A stretch of DNA of 64,000 nt from the NCBI GenBank assembly GCA_038207395.1, contig JBBQZW010000001.1, forward strand, positions 77,530 to 141,529. The letters are read 5' to 3'. The notes below the pieces were generated by a model. It worked only from the letters and a program-made list of their open reading frames with translations. It had not been told where the DNA came from and searched no databases. The position numbers were made by a program, and so were the translations under genes. This document shows, one piece after another, positions 9,808 through 63,915 of this stretch. Position 1 is the first letter of the stretch; every line of letters starts with the position of its first letter. Source of the stretch: Minisyncoccia bacterium (GTDB taxonomy: Bacteria > Patescibacteriota > Minisyncoccia > Phycocordibacterales > Phycocordibacteraceae).

Positions 9808-10770
9808 CTAGATACTGCAGACTCCTTTGTTTATTGTTATATCCCAGTGTGATGACTCCCGCGCGTATTCGTTACCGCATCTATCTTTATACAATTTAGT
9901 ACCGTCCTTACGGCTTCCTGTTTGGTTTAGTGATTTTAGAAAAGCATCAAGCGCAGCATTAGGCTGCAGGTCAACCTTGTACCCGGTAGAGTGACTGACG
10001 GCACCCGTAGCCTTATGCGTTCCTCCTGTAGTGGAGTTGACTTGGACGGAACAGCCGCATGCTTTTTTAATAGCAATCACTTGGTTTACGGTGTCGGCTC
10101 TTGTATTTGCCATAGTCGCAGTTCCCGAAAACTTCGCAATACTTACGCCTCCAGAAGTTAAGGCACTTCTTGTTTGACTATCATTAAGTACCGTACCAGA
10201 GACTGATCCTGCAGATGGACCTACTGCAGTTGAACCAATATTTTTACCCAAAAGAATATCAATAGTTCCCTCAGCAAGCGAGGTTGGTGCCTTAGCAACG
10301 ATACACCTGTCGCTCTGATCTGCTTTACCACTAATTATAGAGTTCCATGGACCGAAAGAGCCTTCGTCGTACACCGTCTTCATTACGTAATCCACGATGA
10401 GCCACGAAAGGAGGAGTACCGCTAAGCCAATGATTACATTTGTGAGTCTCGTGCGTGCTTTGCTTATGGACTCAGGACTTCCACCACTGGTGAGAAATGA
10501 TAAACCTGCGATAAGCAGATATATCGTGAAAAGAATTATGGCAACAGTAACGGCAAAGTTAATGACGTTTTGAACCGTTTGCATAACGCAGCCAAAATCT
10601 GGTGCAGTTGAAATCGTCCCACCTCCATTTGGATTAGGCTGGTCATTGCAGTGACATTCCTGCGGAACAATAGGACCAAGGAATGTCGGATTTGAAGCTG
10701 CAAACGAGTACTGTGGCATTGCGAGCAGAAGAAGGCTCAAGAATGCTCCTGCTATGACAGTTCGCTTCAT
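9808..10770 (-). CDS. pilin-like 2-TM module (TrbC/VirB2-like) fused to a Cys-containing extracellular domain (paralog A)
   Basis: 320 aa. It has a signal peptide, a CHC..APDFGC Cys cluster, TM1, a charged SKARTR loop, TM2, an IVDYVMKTVY motif and an FGPWNSI motif. This N-terminal ~135-aa module is collinear with ORF 11308-12318 and with the five small ORFs at 24849-26934. The C-terminal ~170 aa have several Cys and no recognised fold. Confidence 0.6.
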   Translation of the reverse strand: MKRTVIAGAFLSLLLLAMPQYSFAASNPTFLGPIVPQECHCNDQPNPNGGGTISTAPDFGCVMQTVQNVINFAVTVAIILFTIYLLIAGLSFLTSGGSPESISKARTRLTNVIIGLAVLLLSWLIVDYVMKTVYDEGSFGPWNSIISGKADQSDRCIVAKAPTSLAEGTIDILLGKNIGSTAVGPSAGSVSGTVLNDSQTRSALTSGGVSIAKFSGTATMANTRADTVNQVIAIKKACGCSVQVNSTTGGTHKATGAVSHSTGYKVDLQPNAALDAFLKSLNQTGSRKDGTKLYKDRCGNEYARESSHWDITINKGVCSI

Positions 10771-10784
10771 GTCACTATTCTAAC

Positions 10785-11300
10785 TTATTGCGGAAGCTTT
10801 ACCGCCCCAGGACAAAAACTGAGTCCTAGATCCTGACCTGCATAGGTTTCATTCACACTAATACTGGTGAAGACTTGCACCTGGAGTTCACAGATCTGAG
10901 TAGTGCTAAGGCCGAGCTTCGCTTTCAATTCCTTTTCAGCAGCGAGCCGAGACGCACCAAGTGGTTCAGCAAGTAGCGATACAAGAAAGCCAGTAGTATT
11001 TGGGTAATAGAGGATTGAGTACGTAGTTTCCTCGTCAGTAGTAACTTGGTATCCATTAGTATCGCTCGCCCACTCTGGTTGCCCTGAGACAATAAATGGC
11101 TGTACCGCGGCGGAAGTTCCGTCTTTGAGTGTTAACGATACCGTCTCCCCTACCGCTACCGGTGTTCCAGTCGCAAAGGTAAAAGGATTATTTACCGGAA
11201 TGGCTTCAGGCGCAGGAGTAGGGAAAACGAAGATGCGTATTAGTGCTCCAATCACCAGTAGCGTGAGAATGATTGAAGAGAGTACTAGAAGTCGTTTCAT
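10785..11300 (-). CDS. hypothetical membrane-anchored/secreted protein
   Basis: 171 aa with an N-terminal TM/signal (LLVLSSIILTLLVIGALIRIF). Sits between the two pilin-like fusion genes. Confidence 0.5.
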   Translation of the reverse strand: MKRLLVLSSIILTLLVIGALIRIFVFPTPAPEAIPVNNPFTFATGTPVAVGETVSLTLKDGTSAAVQPFIVSGQPEWASDTNGYQVTTDEETTYSILYYPNTTGFLVSLLAEPLGASRLAAEKELKAKLGLSTTQICELQVQVFTSISVNETYAGQDLGLSFCPGAVKLPQ

Positions 11301-11307
11301 ACAGAAA

Positions 11308-12318
11308 TTATTTAAAGGGCACGCTACATTTATTTGATGAATATGACCACGGCTGAAAGCCTCTCGAATTAAATAACTTGCATGCCTCTGCAGTATTGTA
11401 CGTGGGATTCTGTGCGGCCTTCACGCATGAATTATACAATTCTTGATCTTTAACTGAGGCCGTACACCACCCTGGATGTGATTTTCCTACCAGCGCACTT
11501 CCCTGGCATGCGGTGGTAAACGCTGCCGGACAGTTTAAGCCCGCTACTTTACTTGTCGTTAGGTTTATCTGCCACAATCCAACCGAGTAACTTGGGCCCT
11601 TACCGCTGTTCAAAAGATCCGACCCAGATTTAATTGAAGAATTGCCGCCGGCACTTTCAAGATTACATACACGAGCAGCTTCGTTCGCGCGAGCTCCAAA
11701 GCAGGTACCCTGTAGTGCTGAAACAGAACAGGCGCCGTTGTTAGGAACTGAGCATGACCCTCCACCTCCTGTACCATTTCCAAACTGCGCGCTTGGAGAA
11801 CTTCCTGCTTCACCGAGTTTTAGTGGGATAGTACCGGTTGCAAGCGGTGATGGATCATGTTCTTTAATACATTCATCTCCAGGAGTCGGTGAAAGTATCG
11901 AGTTCCATGGACCAAATACCGTTCCTTCAAATGCAGTATCAGGGTTGTATACGGTCTTCAGTACAAAGTCGACAATTATCCACGAGCTGAGTATGACCGC
12001 AATACCAATGACGGCATTAAATATTCGTGTACGTGCCTTTGAAAGTGCTTCGGGATTTCCTTGACCAAGCATTAGTGAAAACCCAGCAATGATAATCCAA
12101 ATGACACTAAGAATAATGCCGAACTCTACCGCAGCATTAATTACGTTTTGTAACACTTGGAGAATACATCCGTAGTCAGGAGCAGATCCTGGGCAGTAGC
12201 AGGTACTACCGAGTTGAGGAACGATAGGGTTGGTTGCTCCAAAGGCAATGTACGGAAGGGTAAGGATTAAGAATCCAAACGCAGCTGCAGTGTAGGGTGC
12301 CAAGGGGAAACGCGTCAT
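11308..12318 (-). CDS. pilin-like 2-TM module fused to an Rpf/lytic-transglycosylase-like domain (paralog B)
   Basis: 336 aa. The N-terminal module is paralogous to 9808-10770 (CYC..APDYGC, SKARTR loop, IVDFVLKTVY, FGPWNSI). The C-terminal region (..CNLESAGGN..YSVGLWQIN..GFQPWSYSSNKC) matches the Rpf/transglycosylase-like signature (CESGGNW..GL(Y)Q..W..C), including the catalytic Glu. Confidence 0.6.
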   Translation of the reverse strand: MTRFPLAPYTAAAFGFLILTLPYIAFGATNPIVPQLGSTCYCPGSAPDYGCILQVLQNVINAAVEFGIILSVIWIIIAGFSLMLGQGNPEALSKARTRIFNAVIGIAVILSSWIIVDFVLKTVYNPDTAFEGTVFGPWNSILSPTPGDECIKEHDPSPLATGTIPLKLGEAGSSPSAQFGNGTGGGGSCSVPNNGACSVSALQGTCFGARANEAARVCNLESAGGNSSIKSGSDLLNSGKGPSYSVGLWQINLTTSKVAGLNCPAAFTTACQGSALVGKSHPGWCTASVKDQELYNSCVKAAQNPTYNTAEACKLFNSRGFQPWSYSSNKCSVPFK

Positions 12319-22993: not shown

Positions 22994-24241
22994 ATGTCGA
23001 TTCAATCAGTTGTTGAAAGTGCCTTCGGGTACGAAGACGTAAGTAACTCGCTCTGGAATATCATTTATTCCCTATTTGCTGCAGGCGTTATGCTTGTGTG
23101 TTTTGGGGTGTGGGTGGCATTCAGCGAAAGTTCGTTGGTATGGTATTTCCATTTTGGAACTGCCGCCGCCTATGCGGCTATCGGCCTCGTGCTTATTTCC
23201 GCTGGATTATTTCTTGCGGAAACGGGACAGGTGACTGTTCCCGCGAACCCGGTTAGCGCTGCAATCCTCACTATCTGGGGGAAACGGCTTGAAGTCCTCG
23301 TTCGCGAGGGTAGAGTGTTGCGTTTTAATTTCTGGCCGTTCTACATCGACTACATCATTGTCGACGTGAGCGAGCAGAACCTTCCGTTTTGTTTCACCCA
23401 AGTACGTTGCGCAGCAACGTACGACTACAGTCTTTCTCCCGGGCAACGGCAAGCCGTTACCGGTGGTACGGTGTCTGTTTCGGTCTCAATGACCGTGACG
23501 CCAAACACCGATGACGCCAAAAGGATTATCAAGTATTTGAACTACGGCGGCATCGAGAAAATCAAACAAGTGCTCGAGGAAGTTACCAGCGAAGGGGTGC
23601 GCCACACGGCCATCAAATATGACTGGGAAACCTTTGTCGGCATGAAAGCAGCGCTTACCGTTATGCTGCTGGTAAAAATATCTGAAGTCGATTTCCGCAA
23701 CCTTAAGACGAATAGTCAAGGTTTGGTAGATGAATCGATGTACGATATTACCCCAGACGGGTACAAAGAGCTCGGCTATGTTACTGATCCGATCGCTTAT
23801 CTGTTTCCTGAACGAATTCAGGGTGCGGAGAAAACACCGGAGGAATTAATCGACGAAAAACGTAAGGAGCAAGAAATTGAAATATTCTTGCGAATCGCCC
23901 GTATTCAGGATCTCGCAGATATTATGGATTTGGGCGTGAAAATTGCCCGGCTCAACATTCCTGCTATTGAACCTGAAGGAGCTGCTGACGAAGGCGCTGA
24001 ACTCGCTGCACGTGAAGCAAAAGAACGTGAAGCAGAACTCGCCGATACTCGAACAACTACCATGCGTGCAGATGCGATCGTAGAAGCTTCAAAAGGAGAA
24101 GACAACAAGCCGACTATTTCTTATGAACGTGCGCTCGAAATTGTTCGTATTGGCAGAGGCCAAGCCAAGGAGATCATAATCCGTGGCGGTGGCGAACTTA
24201 CCGGTGCGGCTGCAATCGTCGCAGGCAACCTCAACAAATAG
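22994..24241 (+). CDS. SPFH/Band-7 (stomatin/flotillin-like) domain membrane protein
   Basis: 415 aa with N-terminal TM helices, an SPFH-like core (..GKRLEVLVREGRVLRFNFWPFYIDYIIVDVSEQNLPF..) and a long Ala/Glu-rich coiled-coil C-terminus. Confidence 0.5.
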   Translation: MSIQSVVESAFGYEDVSNSLWNIIYSLFAAGVMLVCFGVWVAFSESSLVWYFHFGTAAAYAAIGLVLISAGLFLAETGQVTVPANPVSAAILTIWGKRLEVLVREGRVLRFNFWPFYIDYIIVDVSEQNLPFCFTQVRCAATYDYSLSPGQRQAVTGGTVSVSVSMTVTPNTDDAKRIIKYLNYGGIEKIKQVLEEVTSEGVRHTAIKYDWETFVGMKAALTVMLLVKISEVDFRNLKTNSQGLVDESMYDITPDGYKELGYVTDPIAYLFPERIQGAEKTPEELIDEKRKEQEIEIFLRIARIQDLADIMDLGVKIARLNIPAIEPEGAADEGAELAAREAKEREAELADTRTTTMRADAIVEASKGEDNKPTISYERALEIVRIGRGQAKEIIIRGGGELTGAAAIVAGNLNK

Positions 24242-24250
24242 GAGAAACCT

Positions 24251-24793
24251 ATGTCTTCAGGAAAATCAACTCCCTGGTATAAACGTATTCTTGTTACGGT
24301 TATCCCAGTGGTGATATTCGTCCTGCTTATCATTGTCGCTATTAACTCCCTCTCTTCGAGCTTCGGCTCAGGCGGCGCGGAAACTTCCGCGCGCACTCAG
24401 TCTGACTCGATGAGAAAAGGAGGAGGTGCTGCAACGGCGTCGCCGCAAGCAGCATCTAACGCGCTCAATACCATGTGCGCGGCGTACAGTCTGGCACCCC
24501 AGCACTGCACGCTCAAACCATTCGTGCATGGACAGGGATATATCGGATTCGTTCGTGACGCCCCTGATCATGCACGCATGTGCACATCGCTTGCCGATGA
24601 CCTTCCATCCACTCCGGTTGAGAAAAGGGTTATCAAGGAAACTTGGTACCTGCTCACTGACGGAAAAGAAGTGAAGGTTGAACCAGGACAAGCAAAGCCG
24701 GAAAATATCTTCGCGATTGAAACGATTCCGACCCAAGAAGTCAGTTTCGTATACTATCTGGCAGAAAGTGACTGCAAGATGGTTCCCTCGTAA
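24251..24793 (+). CDS. hypothetical membrane-anchored protein
   Basis: 180 aa with a single N-terminal TM (ILVTVIPVVIFVLLIIVAI) and an extracytoplasmic Cys-containing domain. Immediately downstream of the SPFH gene, so possibly a partner protein. Confidence 0.45.
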   Translation: MSSGKSTPWYKRILVTVIPVVIFVLLIIVAINSLSSSFGSGGAETSARTQSDSMRKGGGAATASPQAASNALNTMCAAYSLAPQHCTLKPFVHGQGYIGFVRDAPDHARMCTSLADDLPSTPVEKRVIKETWYLLTDGKEVKVEPGQAKPENIFAIETIPTQEVSFVYYLAESDCKMVPS

Positions 24794-24815
24794 GATCTTT
24801 CGTGAACAACTATAC

Positions 24816-24850
24816 ACCGGCCCCTTTCTACTAAGGGGCCGGTTTTCTTT
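24816..24850. terminator. bidirectional rho-independent terminator
   Basis: Hairpin CCGGCCCCTT-tctact-AAGGGGCCGG followed by TTTTCTTT. Separates the convergent plus-strand SPFH pair from the minus-strand pilin array. Confidence 0.65.
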
Positions 24851-25124
24851 ATCCCCCTACAACCTTCCTTAGTATCTCTACAATCGTTCGTGCTCCAAAG
24901 AGTATCGTAAGCCCCACAAGACCATATATGAGGTGCTGCTGGCCTGTTTTTCGCTTCTCTTCATTATCGGCACCGCGTATAAACTCAAACACTCCATAGG
25001 CAAAAAGAATGAAGGCGAGTAAGGCCAAAACGGTTATTGCCGGGTTAATAATTTGATCTTGAACTTTTGTGACAAAGGCGTGAAAGGAATCCATTAGGGT
25101 AATAATAGCAGAAGCCCGCGGCAT
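24849..25124 (-). CDS. small 2-TM pilin-like protein (TrbC/VirB2-like), paralog 1 of 5
   Basis: 91 aa with TM1, the loop GADNEEKRKTGQQ and TM2. The last gene of the tandem array. Confidence 0.6.
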   Translation of the reverse strand: MPRASAIITLMDSFHAFVTKVQDQIINPAITVLALLAFILFAYGVFEFIRGADNEEKRKTGQQHLIYGLVGLTILFGARTIVEILRKVVGG

Positions 25125-25161
25125 TGCCGCGGGCTTCTGGTGGAGAATACTGAATCTTCAG

Positions 25162-25548
25162 CTAGTTAGAAACGCGTATGTTATCAGCGCTAGGCAAACC
25201 GTTTCCTGGAACAGGACGGTTGTTGTTAAGTCCTACGGTTCCCGTAAGAATACGAACAAGTCCCCATACTGAAACCATAACAAAGAAACCAATAATGCCA
25301 TAAATCATTACCTGCTTTCCCTTATCACGCTTCTCTGCATCTGCTGCTCCCGCAATGAAGTACATGAAGATACCAACAATGAACACAATGAAGGCGAGCG
25401 CGAAGACGAGAGGAACGGCAATGTTGTTAATGAAGTCAACAACAAACTTTGAGAGATCCTGGATGCTGTTAATTGACTGGCCTGGCGCCTGCGCAAACGC
25501 AAGAGCGGGAACGAAGAGCGAAAGGCCTGCTAGGGCAAACTTTTTCAT
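25162..25548 (-). CDS. small 2-TM pilin-like protein, paralog 2 of 5
   Basis: 128 aa with a signal peptide (..ALAFAQA), TM1, the loop AGAADAEKRDKGKQ, TM2 (..VWGLV) and a short C-terminal tail. Confidence 0.6.
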   Translation of the reverse strand: MKKFALAGLSLFVPALAFAQAPGQSINSIQDLSKFVVDFINNIAVPLVFALAFIVFIVGIFMYFIAGAADAEKRDKGKQVMIYGIIGFFVMVSVWGLVRILTGTVGLNNNRPVPGNGLPSADNIRVSN

Positions 25549-25646
25549 ACGATAAGTAGGGATTCAATAAGTAGTACTTGTTAAGCATAAACCTCTGAGG
25601 CGTAGCGTCAATGCATGCCTGGGGACGGAGCCCTGGCAAGAATGAA

Positions 25647-26093
25647 CTAATTTTTGATTTGTCCTCCGTACGCACTACAGTCTGCAGCACTCACTTTTAC
25701 TGAGCTGCCTGAAGACAGCACACAGGTAATGCCTGTTTGACCAGGGGCGGTGAAGTCATTTGGTAGTCCACGGGTGTCAGAGGCGCCCGTTCCTGAACAA
25801 TTACTTGTCTCACTGAACGTAGGGAGACACGGACGATTCGTATTATCAAATCCAAAAGTGTTTACCACTAAGTTTACGAGTCCCCATACTGACATCATGA
25901 CCGCAAAGCCAATCACTGAGTACAGAATAATCTGCCCCCCCGTGGCGCGCTTCTCAGGATTGTCTGCGCCCGCAATCATGTAGCGGAACACGCCGAACAA
26001 GAAGATGATGAAGGCAACAGCAAATACGAGTGGCACCAATACGTTATTAATAAAATCAATGAATGAGACTATGATTGCCGTGATCTTTGCCAT
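25647..26093 (-). CDS. small 2-TM pilin-like protein, paralog 3 of 5
   Basis: 148 aa with TM1, the loop AGADNPEKRATGGQ, TM2 (..VWGLV) and a Cys-containing C-terminal tail of about 70 aa. Confidence 0.6.
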   Translation of the reverse strand: MAKITAIIVSFIDFINNVLVPLVFAVAFIIFLFGVFRYMIAGADNPEKRATGGQIILYSVIGFAVMMSVWGLVNLVVNTFGFDNTNRPCLPTFSETSNCSGTGASDTRGLPNDFTAPGQTGITCVLSSGSSVKVSAADCSAYGGQIKN

Positions 26094-26110
26094 ACAAAAA
26101 GTATACCGTG

Positions 26111-26437
26111 TTAGGTGTTAAAACTTCCGAGAATGCCGAGCATTACGCGCACAAATCCCCACACCGCAAAGAGTGCTACAAAACCGATAATTCCGTATAT
26201 AGCAAAATACTTCCCCTTTTCTCGATTTTCAGGGTTTGCTGAAAAGAAAAGTCGCACCATGCCGATGAGAAATACGATAAATGAGAGTGCATATAGGAGC
26301 GTGATAATAGTGTTCCCAAAAGGCACTACTTGCGTGTCAACAATTTCTTTAAAGGATTTTGCGTAGGTAGTCACTGGGATCAGTGCTGCTGACACGACGG
26401 GCAATGCGCCAAGTGAAAGATTCGATATCCTACTCAT
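26111..26437 (-). CDS. small 2-TM pilin-like protein, paralog 4 of 5
   Basis: 108 aa with TM1, the loop SANPENREKGK and TM2 (..VWGFV). Confidence 0.55.
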   Translation of the reverse strand: MSRISNLSLGALPVVSAALIPVTTYAKSFKEIVDTQVVPFGNTIITLLYALSFIVFLIGMVRLFFSANPENREKGKYFAIYGIIGFVALFAVWGFVRVMLGILGSFNT

Positions 26438-26934
26438 GGTCGTAGCGAGGTAACGGTTGAAGTAATTACTTCTTTGATGGCTGCAGCTCCAAGGATTATC
26501 AGCCCTCCAATAATCGTGAACATGAGTGCTCTTCGTGCCTTACTAATATTTTCTTCATTACCTCGTGCAGCAACGAATAGAAAACCCGTATAGATAAGTG
26601 CGAGCGTAAGAATGATGCTTCCGAGCTCAATAGCGGCAGCTAGCAGACCGTCGAGTAGTTCATTAAGTGAATTGAATTTGAGTGGATTTGCAAGCCTACC
26701 AGCATTTGAGGTTTCTCCCTGGTCTGTTGGATTATTGTTAGTTACTCCTTGCCCAGTTGGAGAGCCTATATTTCCATTAGTAGAAGGAGTGTTTGAGATT
26801 CCTCCTTTACCATTTTCCGCATGAGTCACTGTGGGCAAAGAACTTATACTTACGCCTAGGGTAAGAAGTACCGCAATTGTTAGGCCGGCAATCTTTGTTA
26901 CAAGATGTGCAGATCGATAATTAGAATGAGGCAT
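26434..26934 (-). CDS. small 2-TM pilin-like protein, paralog 5 of 5, with a Gly/Asn/Thr-rich N-terminal extension
   Basis: 166 aa with a signal/TM, a low-complexity G/N/T-rich spacer, TM1, the loop ARGNEENISKARR and TM2. The SKAR loop matches the loops of the large paralogs A and B. Overlaps the upstream SBP-like gene by a few nucleotides. Confidence 0.55.
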   Translation of the reverse strand: MPHSNYRSAHLVTKIAGLTIAVLLTLGVSISSLPTVTHAENGKGGISNTPSTNGNIGSPTGQGVTNNNPTDQGETSNAGRLANPLKFNSLNELLDGLLAAAIELGSIILTLALIYTGFLFVAARGNEENISKARRALMFTIIGGLIILGAAAIKEVITSTVTSLRP

Positions 26935-28210
26935 TGATAGCTTGGTTAGCGGCGTCGAGTGCTTGCCCTACTGCACTACGTCCGCTCGTTATACTACTAA
27001 TCATAGTACTGAAGATGCGGTCAGTCGTTGCTGGTGATGGGGATAGCCACCCTTTTGCAATAAGTGCTTGTGGGTAATATACCGGAGCGTACCGGTCATT
27101 ATTAGCAGGCGTAAGAGCAGCACGCGTTGCAGGCGCCATAAAGAGAGTCTGTGAGACTACGGGCGCATAGGCGGTATCAGCAAGCGCAAATGCCACCGCC
27201 ACTGCTCCAGCGGCATTAGTTGAGGCTTTTGGCACCGAGAAAGCATATGCCTTTGCGTACGTTACTTTTTGTGCACTTGTCTGCGGCTGGGGTATGGCTG
27301 TCATATCAAAATCCAGGTTTGGATTCGAGGCTTTAAGGAATGGGAGCTCTGACGCAAAACCAGGATAGAAGACTAAACTGCCTGCAATAAATGCCTGACG
27401 TGCAGAGGGAATGGCACGGTTCCAGGAATACACCGTACGTGCAGGGTCAGCGAATTGAGTATAAAAACTCAGCGCTGACTGAGCTGGAGACGTCTTAGAA
27501 GTGCTTGTACCCCCTTCATTAAGGGTTGCTCGGAGACCATTAGTGCTTACTCCGGTAATGGTACTTCCGGCCTGGAGGAGAAGGAGCGAGACAGCCGCAC
27601 GTGCATTCTCAACATTCTCATACACTCCAAACGGCACCGTACTTTGAGAAACAGTCCCTCCAGACGTACGGGAGAGCTGCTCTGCAAGGCTAGTCACCGC
27701 TTCCCAGGATGTTGGCGGAGATGCGATACCTGCAGAGGTAAGAATACTGCGGTTGTAATACAACACGAGCGGATCAACGGTAAACGGCACTCCATACGTT
27801 CCATTAGCAGCTAAGAAGAGTTCGTCTATAGGAAGATAGGTATTTAAATACGTACGCTCAGAAATAGTTGAGAACGGTATGACTGAAAGCTTATTCTGCT
27901 GTGTTACTAATTCCTCTTGAGAGACAAGGATGAGATCGGGGCCATTGCCTGCGGCAATGGCCTGCGCAAGATCAACATCAAACGTATTCTCCGACTTCTC
28001 CTGGTAACTTACCCCTTGATACTCTTGGTTTGAAGAGCGAAGCGTATTTAAGATCTGCTCCATACTACTTTGTGGAAGTGTCCCCCAGATCGTAACTGCC
28101 CCAACCTTTGTACTAGCACTTCCAAAGCCTCCAAAATTTGAGAACAGCACAAGCCCAAGCACAATAAGAAAGCCGAAGATGGCGAGAAGTATGATCTGGA
28201 ACGGTTTCAT
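26921..28210 (-). CDS. extracellular solute-binding protein family 1-like (membrane-anchored, orphan)
   Basis: 429 aa with an N-terminal TM anchor followed by ..VGAVTIWGTLPQ..GVSYQEK..GNGPDLILVSQEEL..YGVPFTVDPLVLYYNRSIL.., collinear with sugar-type ABC SBP_bac_1. No permease or ATPase genes are nearby. Co-oriented and tightly spaced with the pilin array. Confidence 0.55.
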   Translation of the reverse strand: MKPFQIILLAIFGFLIVLGLVLFSNFGGFGSASTKVGAVTIWGTLPQSSMEQILNTLRSSNQEYQGVSYQEKSENTFDVDLAQAIAAGNGPDLILVSQEELVTQQNKLSVIPFSTISERTYLNTYLPIDELFLAANGTYGVPFTVDPLVLYYNRSILTSAGIASPPTSWEAVTSLAEQLSRTSGGTVSQSTVPFGVYENVENARAAVSLLLLQAGSTITGVSTNGLRATLNEGGTSTSKTSPAQSALSFYTQFADPARTVYSWNRAIPSARQAFIAGSLVFYPGFASELPFLKASNPNLDFDMTAIPQPQTSAQKVTYAKAYAFSVPKASTNAAGAVAVAFALADTAYAPVVSQTLFMAPATRAALTPANNDRYAPVYYPQALIAKGWLSPSPATTDRIFSTMISSITSGRSAVGQALDAANQAINASF

Positions 28211-28228
28211 ATACTAAGTTGTTACGGG

Positions 28229-28765
28229 TTAACGTTCAGGGGATGTAAAAACGATAGCATAGTGATGCGCACCCGCTCTAAAGTCTTTACCTTTATGGAA
28301 ACCTCCTGTAATGAAAAGTTCTTCTGCCGAATGTTCAGAAACTACATGCTGTGCATCGGGACCCATACCTCCATACGCACCCGCCCAATCAACCACCAGT
28401 ACTTTTCCTCCGGGTTTACTAATACGCAAACACTCAGCAACCATATTCTCTTTGTGTTCAATCTGAAATAGTACATTTGAGATAATGACTGCATCCATGG
28501 ACTGATCACGAAGTTTTGTACCTCCCTTGTTCTCAATGTTTCCCCACAGTGTTTCTATATTTCGGAGCCCACGCGCATGTGCTGAATCAAGTACATGCGT
28601 AAGTATGTCTTTCTGAATATCAATAGCGTACACGCGTCCGTCATGACCAACTGCTGCAGCTGCAGCTAGAGAATAGTGTCCGGTACCTGCGCCAAGATCA
28701 GCGACCTTCATCCCTTCACGAACTCCAAGCTGGAGTATGTTATTTTTTGGATCGGCAAAGTTCAT
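28229..28765 (-). CDS. class I SAM-dependent methyltransferase
   Basis: 178 aa with motif I (VADLGAGTGHYSL) and a post-I acidic residue (AIDIQ). A small Rossmann-fold MTase. Confidence 0.75.
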   Translation of the reverse strand: MNFADPKNNILQLGVREGMKVADLGAGTGHYSLAAAAAVGHDGRVYAIDIQKDILTHVLDSAHARGLRNIETLWGNIENKGGTKLRDQSMDAVIISNVLFQIEHKENMVAECLRISKPGGKVLVVDWAGAYGGMGPDAQHVVSEHSAEELFITGGFHKGKDFRAGAHHYAIVFTSPER

Positions 28766-28820
28766 TACTATAAAAATAGCACGGGTCGCCCTAAGGCGGC
28801 CCGTGCATCAACAATATCTT

Positions 28821-28982
28821 TTAGCAGACGCAACCCAAGGTGTTCATTGCTCGGGCTTGATCAAGCTCATGACGATTATCCCTGCCCATTGTGCGCATGT
28901 TGCTTGGAAGTCCGAATGGCATCACGCACTTTTTAACGACTGAGTGCGTAGGCGCAGAGGTATTCCGTTCTGGCGTATTCAT
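28821..28982 (-). CDS. small Cys-containing peptide (53 aa), first ORF of the MTase/SBP/pilin operon
   Basis: ATG preceded by AGGGGAAA 6-8 nt upstream. The product MNTPERNTSAPTHSVVKKCVMPFGLPSNMRTMGRDNRHELDQARAMNTLGCVC is directly downstream of a near-consensus promoter. It lies in an otherwise 300-nt non-coding gap and is below the ORF-track size cutoff. Confidence 0.3.
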   Translation of the reverse strand: MNTPERNTSAPTHSVVKKCVMPFGLPSNMRTMGRDNRHELDQARAMNTLGCVC

Positions 28983-29016
28983 GCTGATTTCCCCTGTACT
29001 GTGTTGACCAAGATAG

Positions 29017-29045
29017 GTTATACCACCGTATTTAAACAGTTACAA
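29017..29045 (-). promoter_or_regulatory. sigma-70-like promoter for the peptide-MTase-SBP-pilin operon
   Basis: On the minus strand: TTGTAA (29045-29040), a 17-nt spacer and TATAAC (29022-29017). It sits about 30 nt upstream of the small-peptide RBS and immediately downstream of the gyrA stop. Confidence 0.45.
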
Positions 29046-29072
29046 CACACAAACTTACTTGCGGTATAAAAA

Positions 29073-31541
29073 CTAAAGCGCAACCATCGAAGCAATTGAA
29101 TCGCCTTCACGCATTTTCATAATGCGCACACCCTGAGTAGCGCGTGAGAGACTTGGGATCTCTCCTGCTGAAACGCGGATAACCTGCCCCTTCTTCGAAA
29201 TAACGACAATCTCTTCTTCCTTTGCTTCGTCTCCAATAAGCACGCGTGCGCCGATAATTTCACCCGTCTTTGGCGTGACGTCAGCAGTCTTAATACCGGA
29301 GCCCCCTCGTCCTTGAATCTTATACTCAGTAAGCGGCGTTTTCTTTCCGTAGCCGTTCGCCATAATGATAAGGAGTGACGCGTTCTTAGGGTCAGCATTC
29401 ACGACTTCAGCGGAAACAATGCGGTCATCACCCTTAAGAGCCATTCCACGAACACCAGCCGCCGTGCGTCCCATTGCGCGCGTCTCAGCTTCTTCAAAAC
29501 GAATACTCTGTCCCTTTGAAGTAACGATAGAGATACTATCTTCAGCAGCCGTAAGATGTGCAGCCACAAGACGGTCATCTCCCTTGAGGTTAATAGCAAT
29601 GATTCCTGAGCGTCGAACATCTGCGAATGCCTTTGCCTCCACCTTCTTAATAGTTCCCTGATCGGTTACAAGGAATACGGAAAGCGCATCGCGTGCCGCT
29701 CCCTTTGGAGTTGCAAGTACACTTGTAACTTTTTCGTCAGAGGTCATTGAAAGGAAGTTCATAATGGACTTTCCTTTCGTCGCACGCTTTCCTTCAGGAA
29801 TTTCGTACATTTTTGTCTGATATACCTTTCCTTTATCTGTAAAGAAAAGAAGGTCACTGTGTGCAGATGCTTTAAGGAAATGCGTCACCACGTCTTCTTC
29901 CTTTGTTGAAATATCGATAACACCAACTCCCCCACGCTTCTGCGCTTTGAATTCGTCGGGATTATTGCGCTTTACGTATCCGCCTGCCGTAAGTACCAAA
30001 ACGCTATCTTCGTCAGGAACGAGGTCTTCTACAGAAATATTTTTCACGCCACCCTTCACGATCTTAGTGCGTCGTGCGTCAGAATATTTATCCGCAAACT
30101 CAGAGAGTTCACTTCGTACCACAGCAAGGATATTCTTTGCAGAAGAAAGAATCTTCTTGAGCTTAGCGATAAGAATCTGGAGCTCGGCAAGTTCGTCTTC
30201 AATTTTCTTACGCTCAAGACCCGCAAGCGTCTGAAGACGCATGGCGAGAATAGCGGCTGTCTGGCGCTCTGAGAACGCGAACTTTTTAATAAGATTCTTT
30301 GATGCCTCAGGAACATCCTTAGACTTCTTTATGATTGCGATCACCTCATCAATGTGATCAAGCGCTTTTGAAAGGCCGAGGAGGATGTGTTCACGTTCTT
30401 CTGCTTTTCGAAGCTCGTATTCAGTTCGACGCTTTACGACAAGCTGGCGGTGCTTTACGAACTCTTCGAGCATTCCCTTAAGAGAAAGGGTTTGCGGCAC
30501 GCCGTCCACGAGCGCGAGCATGTTGTAGTGGAACGTGCTCTCAAGTTCTGTGTGTTTGTAGAGGGTATTTAAAACAGCCTGAGGATGCGCCGTTCCTTTG
30601 AGCTCAACCACTACGCGAATGTCCGCAGTTGACTCGTCCCGAAGATCCTTAATACCTTCAATCTTTTTGTCTCGTACCAAATCAGCGATGCGAGTAATAA
30701 GATCCGACTTATTAACGCGGAATGGAATGGAGGTGATGATAATGTTTGTACCCTTTTTATCTTCAATGATTTCCGCTTCACCACGAACTACCACGCCGCC
30801 ACGCCCACCCGTGTACGCGTGTTTAATATCAGCCTGATTAAAGGCAATACCACCCATTGGGAAATCCGGTCCTTTAACAAACTGAAGAAGGTCGTCGGTG
30901 GTAGCTTCTGAGTTATCTATCAAATGCATGGTCGCGTCAGCAACCTCGCGCAGGTTATGAGGCGGAATGTTCGTCGCCATACCCACTGCAATGCCGAGTG
31001 CACCATTAAGGAGGAGGTTCGGTGCTGCCGCAGGCAGCACCGTTGGCTCCTGCTTTGAACCATCAAAGTTCGGTGCCCAGTCCACGGTTTCCTTTTCAAG
31101 ATCACGAAGCATTTCGTCCGCAACGCGTGACATACGTGCTTCGGTATAACGATACGCAGCGGCAGGATCTCCATCGATAGAACCGAAGTTTCCCTGACCT
31201 TGAACGAGCGGGTAGCGCGTCGTGAAGTCCTGCGCGAGTTTTACCATTGCCTCATACACGGAAGAGTCTCCGTGTGGGTGGTACGAACCGAGCACTTCTC
31301 CGACTACGGTCGCTGACTTACGGAACTTAGCGGTAGGGGTGAGACCGGTCTGACGCATCGCGAACAAAATACGACGATGCACAGGCTTCAAACCGTCACG
31401 CACATCAGGAAGCGCGCGCGAAGTAATAACGGACATCGCATAGTCCAAATACGAAGATCGCATCTCAGTCGTGATTGACTGGTCAATTATATTTTCGATA
31501 GCCTTAGGCTCTCCTGGTACGGGTGCTTCGTTCTTTGCCAT
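29073..31541 (-). CDS. gyrA: DNA gyrase subunit A
   Basis: 822 aa with a GyrA N-terminal breakage-reunion domain (..[21 protein letters not shown].., active-site Tyr region) and C-terminal beta-pinwheel repeats. No gyrB is adjacent. Confidence 0.9.
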
Positions 31542-42908: not shown

Positions 42909-43292
42909 ATGGGTAAAGATTTTAATGCCTGGAATACTGAGAAAAAATATCTTAACACTAAGTTACAGGGTAAATATGGTCACCCCGGTGAAATCTGGTG
43001 GTGTTCTTTAGGAATAAATATTGGAGTTGAAACTAACGGCAAACACAATTTGTTTGAACGACCTGTAATTATCCTAAAAGCATATAATACAAACAGTCTT
43101 CTTATGCTTCCGCTTACAAGCAAAGAAAAGCGTGATGCTTTTCACTACAGGGTTAGTTCCGAAATCGGTATAAGTTATGCAAAATTAACGCAGGTACGAG
43201 TTATAAGTACAAAAAGGTTATTACGAAAAGTGGGGAAAATTACTACAACTGAGTTCGAAAATTTAATCACTTGTTTCAAAAACAGCATATAA
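42909..43292 (+). CDS. PemK/MazF-family endoribonuclease toxin (solitary)
   Basis: 127 aa (GEIWWCSLGINIGVETNGKHNLFERPVIILKAYNTNSLLMLPLTSKEKRD..KLTQVRVISTKRLLRKVGKITTTEFENL), collinear with MazF/PemK (GDIW.VDF.P..G.E..G.RPA.VVS....N.....V.V.PLTS...R). The region is AT-rich, bracketed by two terminators, with no antitoxin ORF on either side. Confidence 0.65.
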   Translation: MGKDFNAWNTEKKYLNTKLQGKYGHPGEIWWCSLGINIGVETNGKHNLFERPVIILKAYNTNSLLMLPLTSKEKRDAFHYRVSSEIGISYAKLTQVRVISTKRLLRKVGKITTTEFENLITCFKNSI

Positions 43293-63529: not shown

Positions 63530-63537
63530 CATTTGAT

Positions 63538-63915
63538 TGACTGGTACGATAAGCCGAATTCTGTACGAACTACCCCCAAAGGAATCTTTCGTGACGACCA
63601 TCTATCTGGGATGACTGTTACCAGCCACCTCGAGCGGCGCTCATCGTGTAGTGCATTGCTGCAAAACATGAAGCACGGCCTTGCACAGAAGTAAGGATTT
63701 GGCCGTTTCAGCCTGACGTCACCGTCAGGACGCTCTCAAGCCGAGACCTGAGAACACCTAGCTTTTCAGCATCAGTCGTTTCTGTTCGCACCTCGCAGAT
63801 CACTCTGGACGGGAATTACCCGCTACCCTTCTGCTAAAAGCAGAGCTTTTAGCCTGTGTTCGGACTTTCCTCTCCAAGAACGGTGTTCAGGAGCGATCGT
63901 CTGTACCAGTCAGAG
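63538..63915 (-). ncRNA. rnpB: RNase P RNA (bacterial type A)
   Basis: The minus-strand read contains GGAGAGGAAAGTCCGAACACAGG (the P4 strand GGAAAGTCCG..ACAG), GGGTAGCGGGTAATTCCCG, GGTGGCTGGTAACAG and the 3' conserved ACAGAATTCGGCTTA (ACAGAANCCGGCTTA consensus). P1 pairs GACTGGTACAGACG (5') with CGTACCAGTCA (3'). Confidence 0.8.

Follow-up and report, generated by a model that had tools for sequence, protein, structure and literature searches.

Tandem arrays of VirB2-like pilin genes are a published hallmark of the type IV secretion systems (T4SSs) of Patescibacteria, and they are the oddest feature of the only T4SS known to be essential for the growth of its owner. A recent survey (Quinonero-Coronel et al. 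2025, PMC12102498) recorded VirB2-like pilins (PF04956 or PF18895) in 1,948 Patescibacterial assemblies together with 441 arrays of 2-11 such genes, which reached their highest abundance in Microgenomatia and Saccharimonadia, and proposed host-range versatility as the reason for them. In Candidatus Southlakia, the T4SS cluster including its series of pilin genes is essential by transposon sequencing (Wang et al., PMC10633639), and the supplementary tables of that study list six tandem PF18895 genes of 103-185 amino acids beside VirB6, PrgI and VirB4 genes. Monoderm T4SSs as a rule form no pilus, and a 2025 review describes the Patescibacterial systems as unique among monoderms for their potential pili. 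Here we describe an array in a 64,000-nt stretch of a Minisyncoccia bacterium (GenBank assembly GCA_038207395.1, contig JBBQZW010000001.1, positions 77,530 to 141,529; hereafter the window). On the minus strand of the window, downstream of gyrA (29073-31541), five genes for small pilin-like proteins, numbered rank 1 to rank 5 in the direction of transcription, follow genes for a class I methyltransferase and for a membrane-anchored, MalE-like homologue of solute-binding proteins (SBPs). An earlier note on this DNA had listed these open reading frames (ORFs) together with a 53-amino-acid ORF in front of them, and all eight are found where it placed them (Table 1). The pilin-array core is thus of a known kind, and the note's view that the combination is not a described system fails for the array itself. 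It holds for what we found to be new, the constant coupling of the array to an orphan MalE-like protein and a methyltransferase: neither partner is mentioned with such arrays in PMC12102498, in PMC10633639 or in a full-text literature search.

Profile searches and topology support the assignment of the five small proteins, and of two larger ones encoded at 9808-12318, to the TrbC/VirB2 pilin superfamily. PF18895 (T4SS_pilin) matched rank 1 at 25.2, rank 2 at 36.7, rank 3 at 40.5, rank 4 at 43.1 and rank 5 at 27.9 bits, with E-values of 2.6e-6 to 4.4e-11; four of the five exceed the cut-off of 26.6 bits and rank 1 falls under it. PF04956 (TrbC/VirB2) was detected below threshold in three small proteins (20.3 bits for rank 1, 24.4 bits for rank 5), and all five gave sub-threshold matches to the NCBIfam model NF045849, a pilin-like conjugal transfer protein of Mycoplasma integrative and conjugative elements. 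As a control against hydrophobic noise, rank-1 and rank-5 orthologues were scanned singly (n = 58), and PF18895 was recovered in 58 of 58 and PF04956 in 52 (E ≤ 0.01, best 3.5e-8). These family matches bear out the earlier proposal of a TrbC/VirB2-type pilin, and the five loop motifs on which it was based occur verbatim in the translations. Hydropathy profiles show two transmembrane (TM) segments in all five proteins, as proposed, whereas the signal segment that had been ascribed to each is present as an extra N-terminal signal-like segment only in ranks 1, 2 and 4 and is missing from ranks 3 and 5. The predicted signal-peptide cleavage site AFA|Q is kept among rank 4 orthologues, and an AlphaFold2 model of rank 4 comprises a signal helix followed by a helical hairpin (residues 29-66 and 71-104; predicted local distance difference test (pLDDT) 80-91). 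A custom pilin hidden Markov model picked out exactly seven pilin-domain ORFs in the window, and alignment of the seven domains placed TM1, the short charged loop and TM2 in register.

We then compared the array across 55 non-redundant, species-level loci with exactly five pilin genes. The best cross-locus hit of each pilin domain had the same rank in 270 of 275 cases (52 of 55 for rank 2), showing that the five pilins are five ancient, separately kept subunits in a fixed gene order. Ranks 2-4 are mutually closest and ranks 1 and 5 are the TrbC-like ones; rank 4 has the highest within-rank score of the five groups. Arrays with six or seven genes mostly follow the order 1-2-3-4-(extra 4-like copy)-5. 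Within the window the five pilins share 19-59% identity (mean 35%), comparable to published arrays. Readings by recent duplication or antigenic variation were rejected on the rank orthology, and five one-to-one subunits, one of them with the regulatory signature of a major subunit, argue for a defined heteromeric structure instead. Rank 3 stands out for its C-terminal tail (25647-25860 in the window), which is hypervariable in orthologues (15-366 amino acids), of low complexity and even in its number of Cys residues in 55 of 55 loci (0 in 19 loci, otherwise 2, 4, 6, 8 or 26), a pattern that would suit a fast-evolving region exposed at the surface and held by disulfide bonds.

The genes in front of the array are as constant as the array. 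Homologues of the SBP-like protein number more than 1,200 and, where named, all come from Parcubacteria, Paceibacterota or Patescibacteria; exact look-up of the window protein found it not on record, and a Logan search returned a 2.4-kb contig identical to the array. Scanning one genome per species, we found a relative in 340 species and kept the best 80 loci, with 40-79% SBP identity. Every locus of sufficient length has the order beta-lactamase-fold gene, small unknown gene, gyrA, methyltransferase, SBP-like gene and pilins, the last numbering five, sometimes six or seven, on the same strand. The methyltransferase-SBP-pilin order is constant in all informative loci of the 80 species, down to 40% SBP identity, and the methyltransferase gene lies upstream of the SBP-like gene in all loci that cover the position except L086, in which none is detectable. 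The methyltransferase, SBP-like, rank 1 and rank 2 genes overlap at their ends or lie within a few nucleotides of each other: in relatives the gap between methyltransferase and SBP-like gene is usually -4 to +27 nt, and in the window the SBP-like gene overlaps rank 1 by 14 nt and the start of rank 2 overlaps the stop of rank 1 by 4 nt. No promoter-like motif lies between the methyltransferase, SBP-like and rank 1 genes. The overlapping or near-abutting gene ends are, in our reading of these sequences, a stronger argument for functional coupling than synteny.

The SBP-like protein had been described as a membrane-anchored, family-1 SBP homologue without transporter partners, and both parts of that description stand. 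The window protein itself has no Pfam match at E ≤ 1, and it is a distant relative of family-1 sugar SBPs by its match to PDB entry 4r9f over residues 83-395 (E 4.7e-9); the profile of its family finds 51 PDB hits, all of them family-1 sugar SBPs. Many orthologues pass SBP_bac_1 or SBP_bac_8 (PF01547 or PF13416), and relatives are named sugar-transport binding proteins in their source records. Its single N-terminal TM helix is conserved to nearly the same degree as the globular part (0.68 versus 0.69). An AlphaFold2 model built with 27 close homologues was poor (mean pLDDT 49.3). In 87 loci, no ORF with a Walker A motif and an ABC signature (LSGGQ) occurs within 10 kb, so the gene is an orphan throughout the clade, and neither ABC_tran nor permease domains came up when the 50 main ORFs of at least 99 amino acids in the 64-kb window were scanned with Pfam. 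The small class I methyltransferase was likewise recognized correctly, with scores of 60.4 bits to Methyltransf_31, 55.3 to Methyltransf_25 and 54.1 to Methyltransf_11; its best PDB match is 3dh0 (E 6.4e-20), a protein of unknown function.

Conserved hairpins and promoter-like motifs point to several transcription units in the cluster and speak against the single seven-gene operon from about 29010 to 24849 that the earlier note had envisaged: a terminator-like hairpin separates the 53-amino-acid ORF from the methyltransferase gene, and promoter-like motifs precede the methyltransferase and ranks 3, 4 and 5. An in-frame TGnTAnnnT-N5-9-ATG arrangement lies ahead of the methyltransferase in 71 of 80 genes, and TGCTATTTT is the putative promoter of a leaderless transcript that would run from the methyltransferase through the SBP-like gene to at least rank 2. 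Rank 3 has the same arrangement in front of it in 42 of 55 loci, and the arrangement recurs, as TGCTATnAT with a spacing of 6-8 nt, between the rank 4 hairpin and the rank 5 ATG in 45 of 55. Because this -10-like motif lies directly 3' of the hairpin with the ATG 6-8 nt further on, and the ATG at 25124 sits in the conserved hairpin loop, rank 5 is read here from ATG 25094 (81 rather than 91 amino acids); the ORF given earlier as 24849-25124 is retained with this later start. Rank 4 differs in its signals. TTGAC-N17-19-TAnnnT precedes it in 50 of 55 loci and precedes no other rank, and a hairpin of ≤ -15 kcal/mol follows it in 96% of the 55 loci (median -27 kcal/mol), with compensatory changes in 9 of 11 consensus pairs in an alignment of 45 loci; hairpins of this stability follow ranks 1-3 in 7-20% and rank 5 in 94% of loci. 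With a promoter-like element of its own and a covarying hairpin behind it, rank 4 is a candidate for a separately and strongly expressed, likely major subunit.

Ahead of the methyltransferase (28763-28781), rank 3 (26091-26105) and rank 5 (25092-25110), the -10-like element lies 6-7 nt before the ATG and no Shine-Dalgarno sequence is seen. These three genes are probably translated from leaderless or near-leaderless mRNAs, which suggests that such mRNAs are common in the lineage. The two leaderless-type pilins, ranks 3 and 5, are the same two that have no signal peptide. A pyrimidine-rich motif, TTCTCCAC / TGTCC(C)CAC, occurs at ~25147-25154 and ~25617-25625, about 50 nt upstream of the inferred start points of rank 5 and rank 4, and is kept in 34 of 55 and 52 of 55 loci, respectively; it may be the site of a shared regulator.

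The 53-amino-acid Cys-containing peptide had been taken as the first component of the cluster. A promoter-like site, TTGTAA-17-TATAAC, can be read at 29045-29017 as proposed, and a ribosome-binding site, AGGGG, lies 8 nt before its ATG. The ORF has no match in Pfam, NCBIfam or PHROG and zero homologues among 5.8 billion proteins. In relatives, the spacer between gyrA and the methyltransferase (28766-29072 in the window) varies between -11 and 2046 nt and contains either no ORF or unrelated ones, the closest relatives included, and the Cys positions of these ORFs are not kept; a TGGTAyAAy motif like the promoter of the 53-amino-acid ORF is found in relatives L001, L007, L010 and L011 and not in all. 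By this comparison, neither the ORF nor its promoter belongs to the conserved system. The hairpin at 28806-28779 looks like a terminator of gyrA or of a variable-slot transcript: relatives have a hairpin of other sequence at the position upstream of the methyltransferase, and where the slot has no small ORF it lies directly 3' of gyrA (L003, L012). No Rfam family matched 24700-29200 even at E ≤ 1 apart from chance-level hits, so the spacer is not a known riboswitch or leader. ORFs in the variable slot of the window and of L001, L005, L007-L011 and L014 are 53, 54, 58, 60, 71 and ~118 amino acids long, in L005 the slot has an uncalled Cys-rich ORF of ~190 amino acids, and several have a TGGTAyAAy -10-like motif and a strong GGGG or GGAGG ribosome-binding site. 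The right border of the slot is kept as (A)TGTTGA, a hairpin and TGnTATTTT. Possibly the slot is a hot-spot at which small accessory or effector genes insert.

The array shares with Ca. Southlakia epibionticum SEML1_0014-0019 and with the surveyed arrays a tandem series of PF18895 genes for proteins of ~80-185 amino acids, some of which also match PF04956, and it resembles Patescibacterial arrays in low mutual identity, chromosomal location, lack of a relaxase context and a Patescibacteria host. The survey gave the highest abundance of arrays for Microgenomatia and Saccharimonadia, whereas this one belongs to Paceibacteria. Published arrays have been read as antigenic or host-range variation, whereas the five genes here form fixed orthologous groups. 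The same contrast holds for the T4SSs of Bartonella, Anaplasma and Rickettsia, which also have several divergent virB2 copies in tandem: those are thought to provide antigenic variation or host range, and the copies here correspond one to one across 55 loci. With RP4 TrbC, Agrobacterium VirB2 and F TraA, the window proteins have in common the helix-loop-helix, the short charged loop and similarity to the PF04956 profile, and three of the five have a putative leader peptide. They differ in falling mostly below the Pfam cut-off for that family, in lacking pairwise similarity to plasmid pilins, in coming from a monoderm host, in forming a set of five distinct subunits rather than one and in having no adjacent virB genes. 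The pheromone-binding proteins PrgZ/TraC of enterococcal conjugative plasmids offer a parallel to the SBP-like protein: there, too, a monoderm T4SS comes with an orphan SBP homologue that has no permease of its own or uses a borrowed one. The ligands of PrgZ are peptides, and it is a lipoprotein of the OppA-like family 5, whereas the window protein belongs with MalE in family 1 and has a TM helix as its anchor.

With moderate confidence, we interpret the cluster as the Paceibacteria (Parcubacteria) counterpart of the VirB2-like array of a monoderm-type, MPF-FATA-like Patescibacterial T4SS (MPF, mating-pair formation). The five proteins would insert as helix-loop-helix hairpins with the charged loop in the cytoplasm, three of them (ranks 1, 2 and 4) after first losing a Sec signal peptide. 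Extraction and assembly of the hairpin proteins would fall to a VirB4-driven machine whose genes lie elsewhere on the chromosome, and the product would be a heteromeric pilus or conduit in contact with the host cell. Rank 4 would most likely be the abundant major subunit, and ranks 1, 2, 3 and 5 would be minor or specialised subunits, the tail of rank 3 being suited to surface contact. The genes for the methyltransferase and the MalE-like protein would share a transcript with the first pilin genes and be coupled to them in translation; the MalE-like protein would most likely be a surface sugar or glycan receptor of the apparatus, not part of a local ABC importer, and the methyltransferase may modify a subunit or ligand. 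We give little credence, at present, to a bolder version in which all of these parts make one organelle: a VirB2-based pilus or stalk, driven by a T4SS, carrying or positioning the sugar or glycan receptor in the manner of a bindosome and serving host recognition or capture of host carbohydrate, with the subunits in distinct filament positions (for example five protomers per layer in a five-start VirB2 helix) and the methyltransferase modifying a subunit.

The Pfam scan of the 50 main ORFs of the window found no VirB4, VirB6, VirD4 or prepilin peptidase, in agreement with the earlier note, which had left a choice between a stand-alone filament and machinery encoded elsewhere. The second option gains support and fits the literature, as VirB4 is listed as present in Parcubacteria C7867-004, -007 and -008 (PMC12102498 Table S1), three relatives with this cluster (loci L022, L012 and L003, respectively). 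Several points weigh against the T4SS interpretation. No Patescibacterium is known to display a pilus built of such proteins. Neither the window nor any related locus of 20 kb has a T4SS gene linked to the array, and the annotated flanks of related loci have no VirB4 or VirB6 domain, whereas the Southlakia array sits inside its T4SS cluster and here virB4, virB6 and prgI do not adjoin; the evidence for VirB4 comes from relatives and a published table, not from this genome. The beta-lactamase-fold gene, gyrA and the gene for translation initiation factor 2 (IF2) are as syntenic as the methyltransferase and SBP-like genes, and rbfA and aminotransferases are conserved in the neighbourhood too, so that adjacency alone is no proof that the methyltransferase and SBP-like protein function with the pilins. 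Motif conservation is the sole basis of every promoter and terminator assignment. Finally, fold searches ranked no solved VirB2 or TraA high and matched thousands of unrelated chains, as a two-helix hairpin will, and therefore cannot discriminate; the rank 4 profile matched no solved pilin among PDB sequences, and tblastn of rank 5 against 72,556 plasmids gave zero matches. As structure, PDB-sequence and plasmid searches gave no classical pilin, membership of the family rests on profile-level sequence similarity and topology.

Other explanations differ mainly in what they make of the neighbours, the machinery and the filament. The gene order may be merely stable, with the MalE-like protein serving an ABC importer elsewhere and the methyltransferase a housekeeping enzyme; we regard such synteny without shared function as improbable, though a serious contender. 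It would account for the conservation of the beta-lactamase-fold gene, gyrA, IF2, rbfA and aminotransferases alongside the cluster, for the SBP_bac_1/SBP_bac_8 matches and sugar-transport names of the SBP-like relatives, for the lack of a detectable methyltransferase in L086 and for Southlakia, whose array has no SBP or methyltransferase neighbours while the array here follows gyrA, methyltransferase and SBP-like genes. It does not sit well with an SBP-like gene that overlaps or nearly abuts the methyltransferase and rank 1 genes in most loci with no promoter-like motif between, with the absence of an ABC ATPase signature within 10 kb in 87 loci, with an adjacency that persists to 40% identity, or with a TM anchor that is conserved in sequence. 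It is also unlikely that the hairpin proteins are not filament subunits at all and instead form the stalk or lining of a secretion channel, or are generic small membrane proteins with a TrbC-like hairpin. In favour of such a role stand the general lack of a pilus in monoderm T4SSs, the uninformative structural searches and the two larger proteins, in which the same hairpin does no more than anchor extracellular domains; the family-level TrbC/VirB2 pilin matches, the strong promoter and hairpin of rank 4, as expected for a bulk subunit, and the recent review that deems Patescibacterial T4SSs potentially piliated speak for filament subunits.

A T4SS-independent module, in which the hairpin proteins make a short stalk or platform that displays the sugar-binding protein, like a bindosome or a new kind of uptake complex, seems to us quite unlikely. 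To our knowledge, VirB2-family proteins are assembled only by VirB4-type machines, VirB4 is present in the relatives that could be checked, and the homologous Southlakia arrays lie inside a T4SS cluster. What speaks for such a module is that the SBP-like gene is always directly ahead of the array and translationally coupled to it, that neither a T4SS gene nor an ABC transporter is linked, and that a precedent exists in the Sulfolobus bindosome, a system of small pilin-like proteins with genetic and functional ties to sugar-binding proteins of the cell surface (PMC3047682). The bindosome (Bas) pilins, however, belong to another family: they resemble type IV pilins, carry class III signal peptides and have an ATPase and a platform protein of their own, and the Bas binding proteins serve ABC transporters, which makes the likeness one of analogy rather than homology. 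Barely credible, by comparison, is an operon for a ribosomally synthesized and post-translationally modified peptide (RiPP), with the 53-amino-acid Cys peptide as the precursor, the methyltransferase as the modifying enzyme and the membrane proteins as exporters. The promoter-like site and AGGGG of this ORF, upstream of the methyltransferase gene, are compatible with it, but the conserved terminator-like hairpin parts the two genes, Pfam and NCBIfam revealed zero RiPP enzyme domains, and we rejected a RiPP precursor because the ORF has no homologue and unrelated ORFs with unconserved Cys positions, or none, stand at the same position in relatives.

In the constantly coupled MalE-like protein the array has a concrete candidate receptor, and in the methyltransferase a candidate modification partner; the cluster offers testable leads on host contact or feeding by ultrasmall episymbionts. 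The inferred leaderless starts and terminator-promoter modules should also be useful for the annotation of genomes of the candidate phyla radiation. Coordinates of the features are collected in Table 1.

Table 1. Features of the pilin cluster and of the two larger pilin-domain genes, with positions in the window
Feature	Position	Strand	Remark
Promoter-like TTGTAA-17-TATAAC, TG at -15/-14	29017..29045	-	ahead of 53-aa ORF
53-aa ORF, 3 Cys, orphan, unconserved	28821..28982	-	
GC-rich hairpin GCACGGGCCGCC-TTAG-GGCGACCCGTGC then TATTTTTAT	28779..28806	-	terminator-like
Extended -10-like TGCTATTTT	28773..28781	-	7 nt before methyltransferase ATG, without Shine-Dalgarno
Class I S-adenosylmethionine (SAM)-dependent methyltransferase, 178 aa, cytoplasmic	28229..28765	-	
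Membrane-anchored MalE-like family-1 SBP homologue, 429 aa	26921..28210	-	
Rank 1 pilin-like, 166 aa: signal peptide, G/N/T/S-rich spacer, TrbC-like hairpin	26434..26934	-	
Rank 2 pilin-like, 108 aa	26111..26437	-	
-10-like TATACT	26100..26105	-	6 nt before rank 3 ATG
Rank 3 pilin-like, 148 aa: without signal peptide; C-terminal extracellular tail, 4 Cys	25647..26093	-	
Sigma-70-like promoter TTGACG-16-TATGCT	25584..25611	-	ahead of rank 4
Rank 4 pilin-like, 128 aa: signal peptide MKKFALAGLSLFVPALAFA|Q; most conserved paralog	25162..25548	-	
Hairpin, 14 pairs (11 GC), 3' of rank 4	25109..25139	-	internal terminator or mRNA-stabilising
Extended -10-like TGCTATTAT	25102..25110	-	7 nt before ATG 25094
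Rank 5 pilin-like, 81 aa from ATG 25094: without signal peptide; most TrbC-like	24849..25094	-	
Hairpin between convergent genes, end of array	24816..24843	.	
320-aa protein: signal peptide, rank-1-like pilin hairpin, C-terminal Cys-containing domain	9808..10770	-	
336-aa protein: pilin hairpin, Cys-rich C-terminal domain with lysozyme/soluble lytic transglycosylase (SLT)-like motifs	11308..12318	-	

The two larger proteins, in which the earlier note had seen the same loop and TM geometry, indeed align in register with the small ones and match PF18895 at 36.3 bits (320 amino acids) and 26.5 bits (336 amino acids). In both, a rank-1-like hairpin is fused to a Cys-rich extracellular domain, and neither C-terminal part has a sequence match in the PDB. 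The 336-amino-acid protein also scores 17.5 bits to TrbC and 18.6 bits to SLT_3 (PF18896), the latter below its cut-off, and its lysozyme/SLT-like motifs read NLES and GLWQINL; it may be a cell-wall hydrolase of the VirB1 kind with a pilin-type hairpin as its anchor. A 171-amino-acid membrane-anchored protein of no known family is encoded between the two.

On the other side of the array, the plus-strand genes at 22994-24793, for an SPFH/Band_7 membrane protein and a 180-amino-acid, TM-anchored, Cys-containing protein, converge on it; a Band_7 gene at the convergent position is annotated in L003 and L005 and was found by sequence in only a few of the 80 loci. PHROG searches of neighbours of unknown family gave no matches. 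The window further holds a MazF/PemK-like toxin gene (42909-43292), a bacterial class A RNase P RNA (63534-63912), 11 tRNA genes and the housekeeping genes serS, dprA, topA, relA/spoT, parB, miaA, clpB, IF2, gyrA, ftsA, ftsZ, murJ and lepA, an ordinary chromosomal context.

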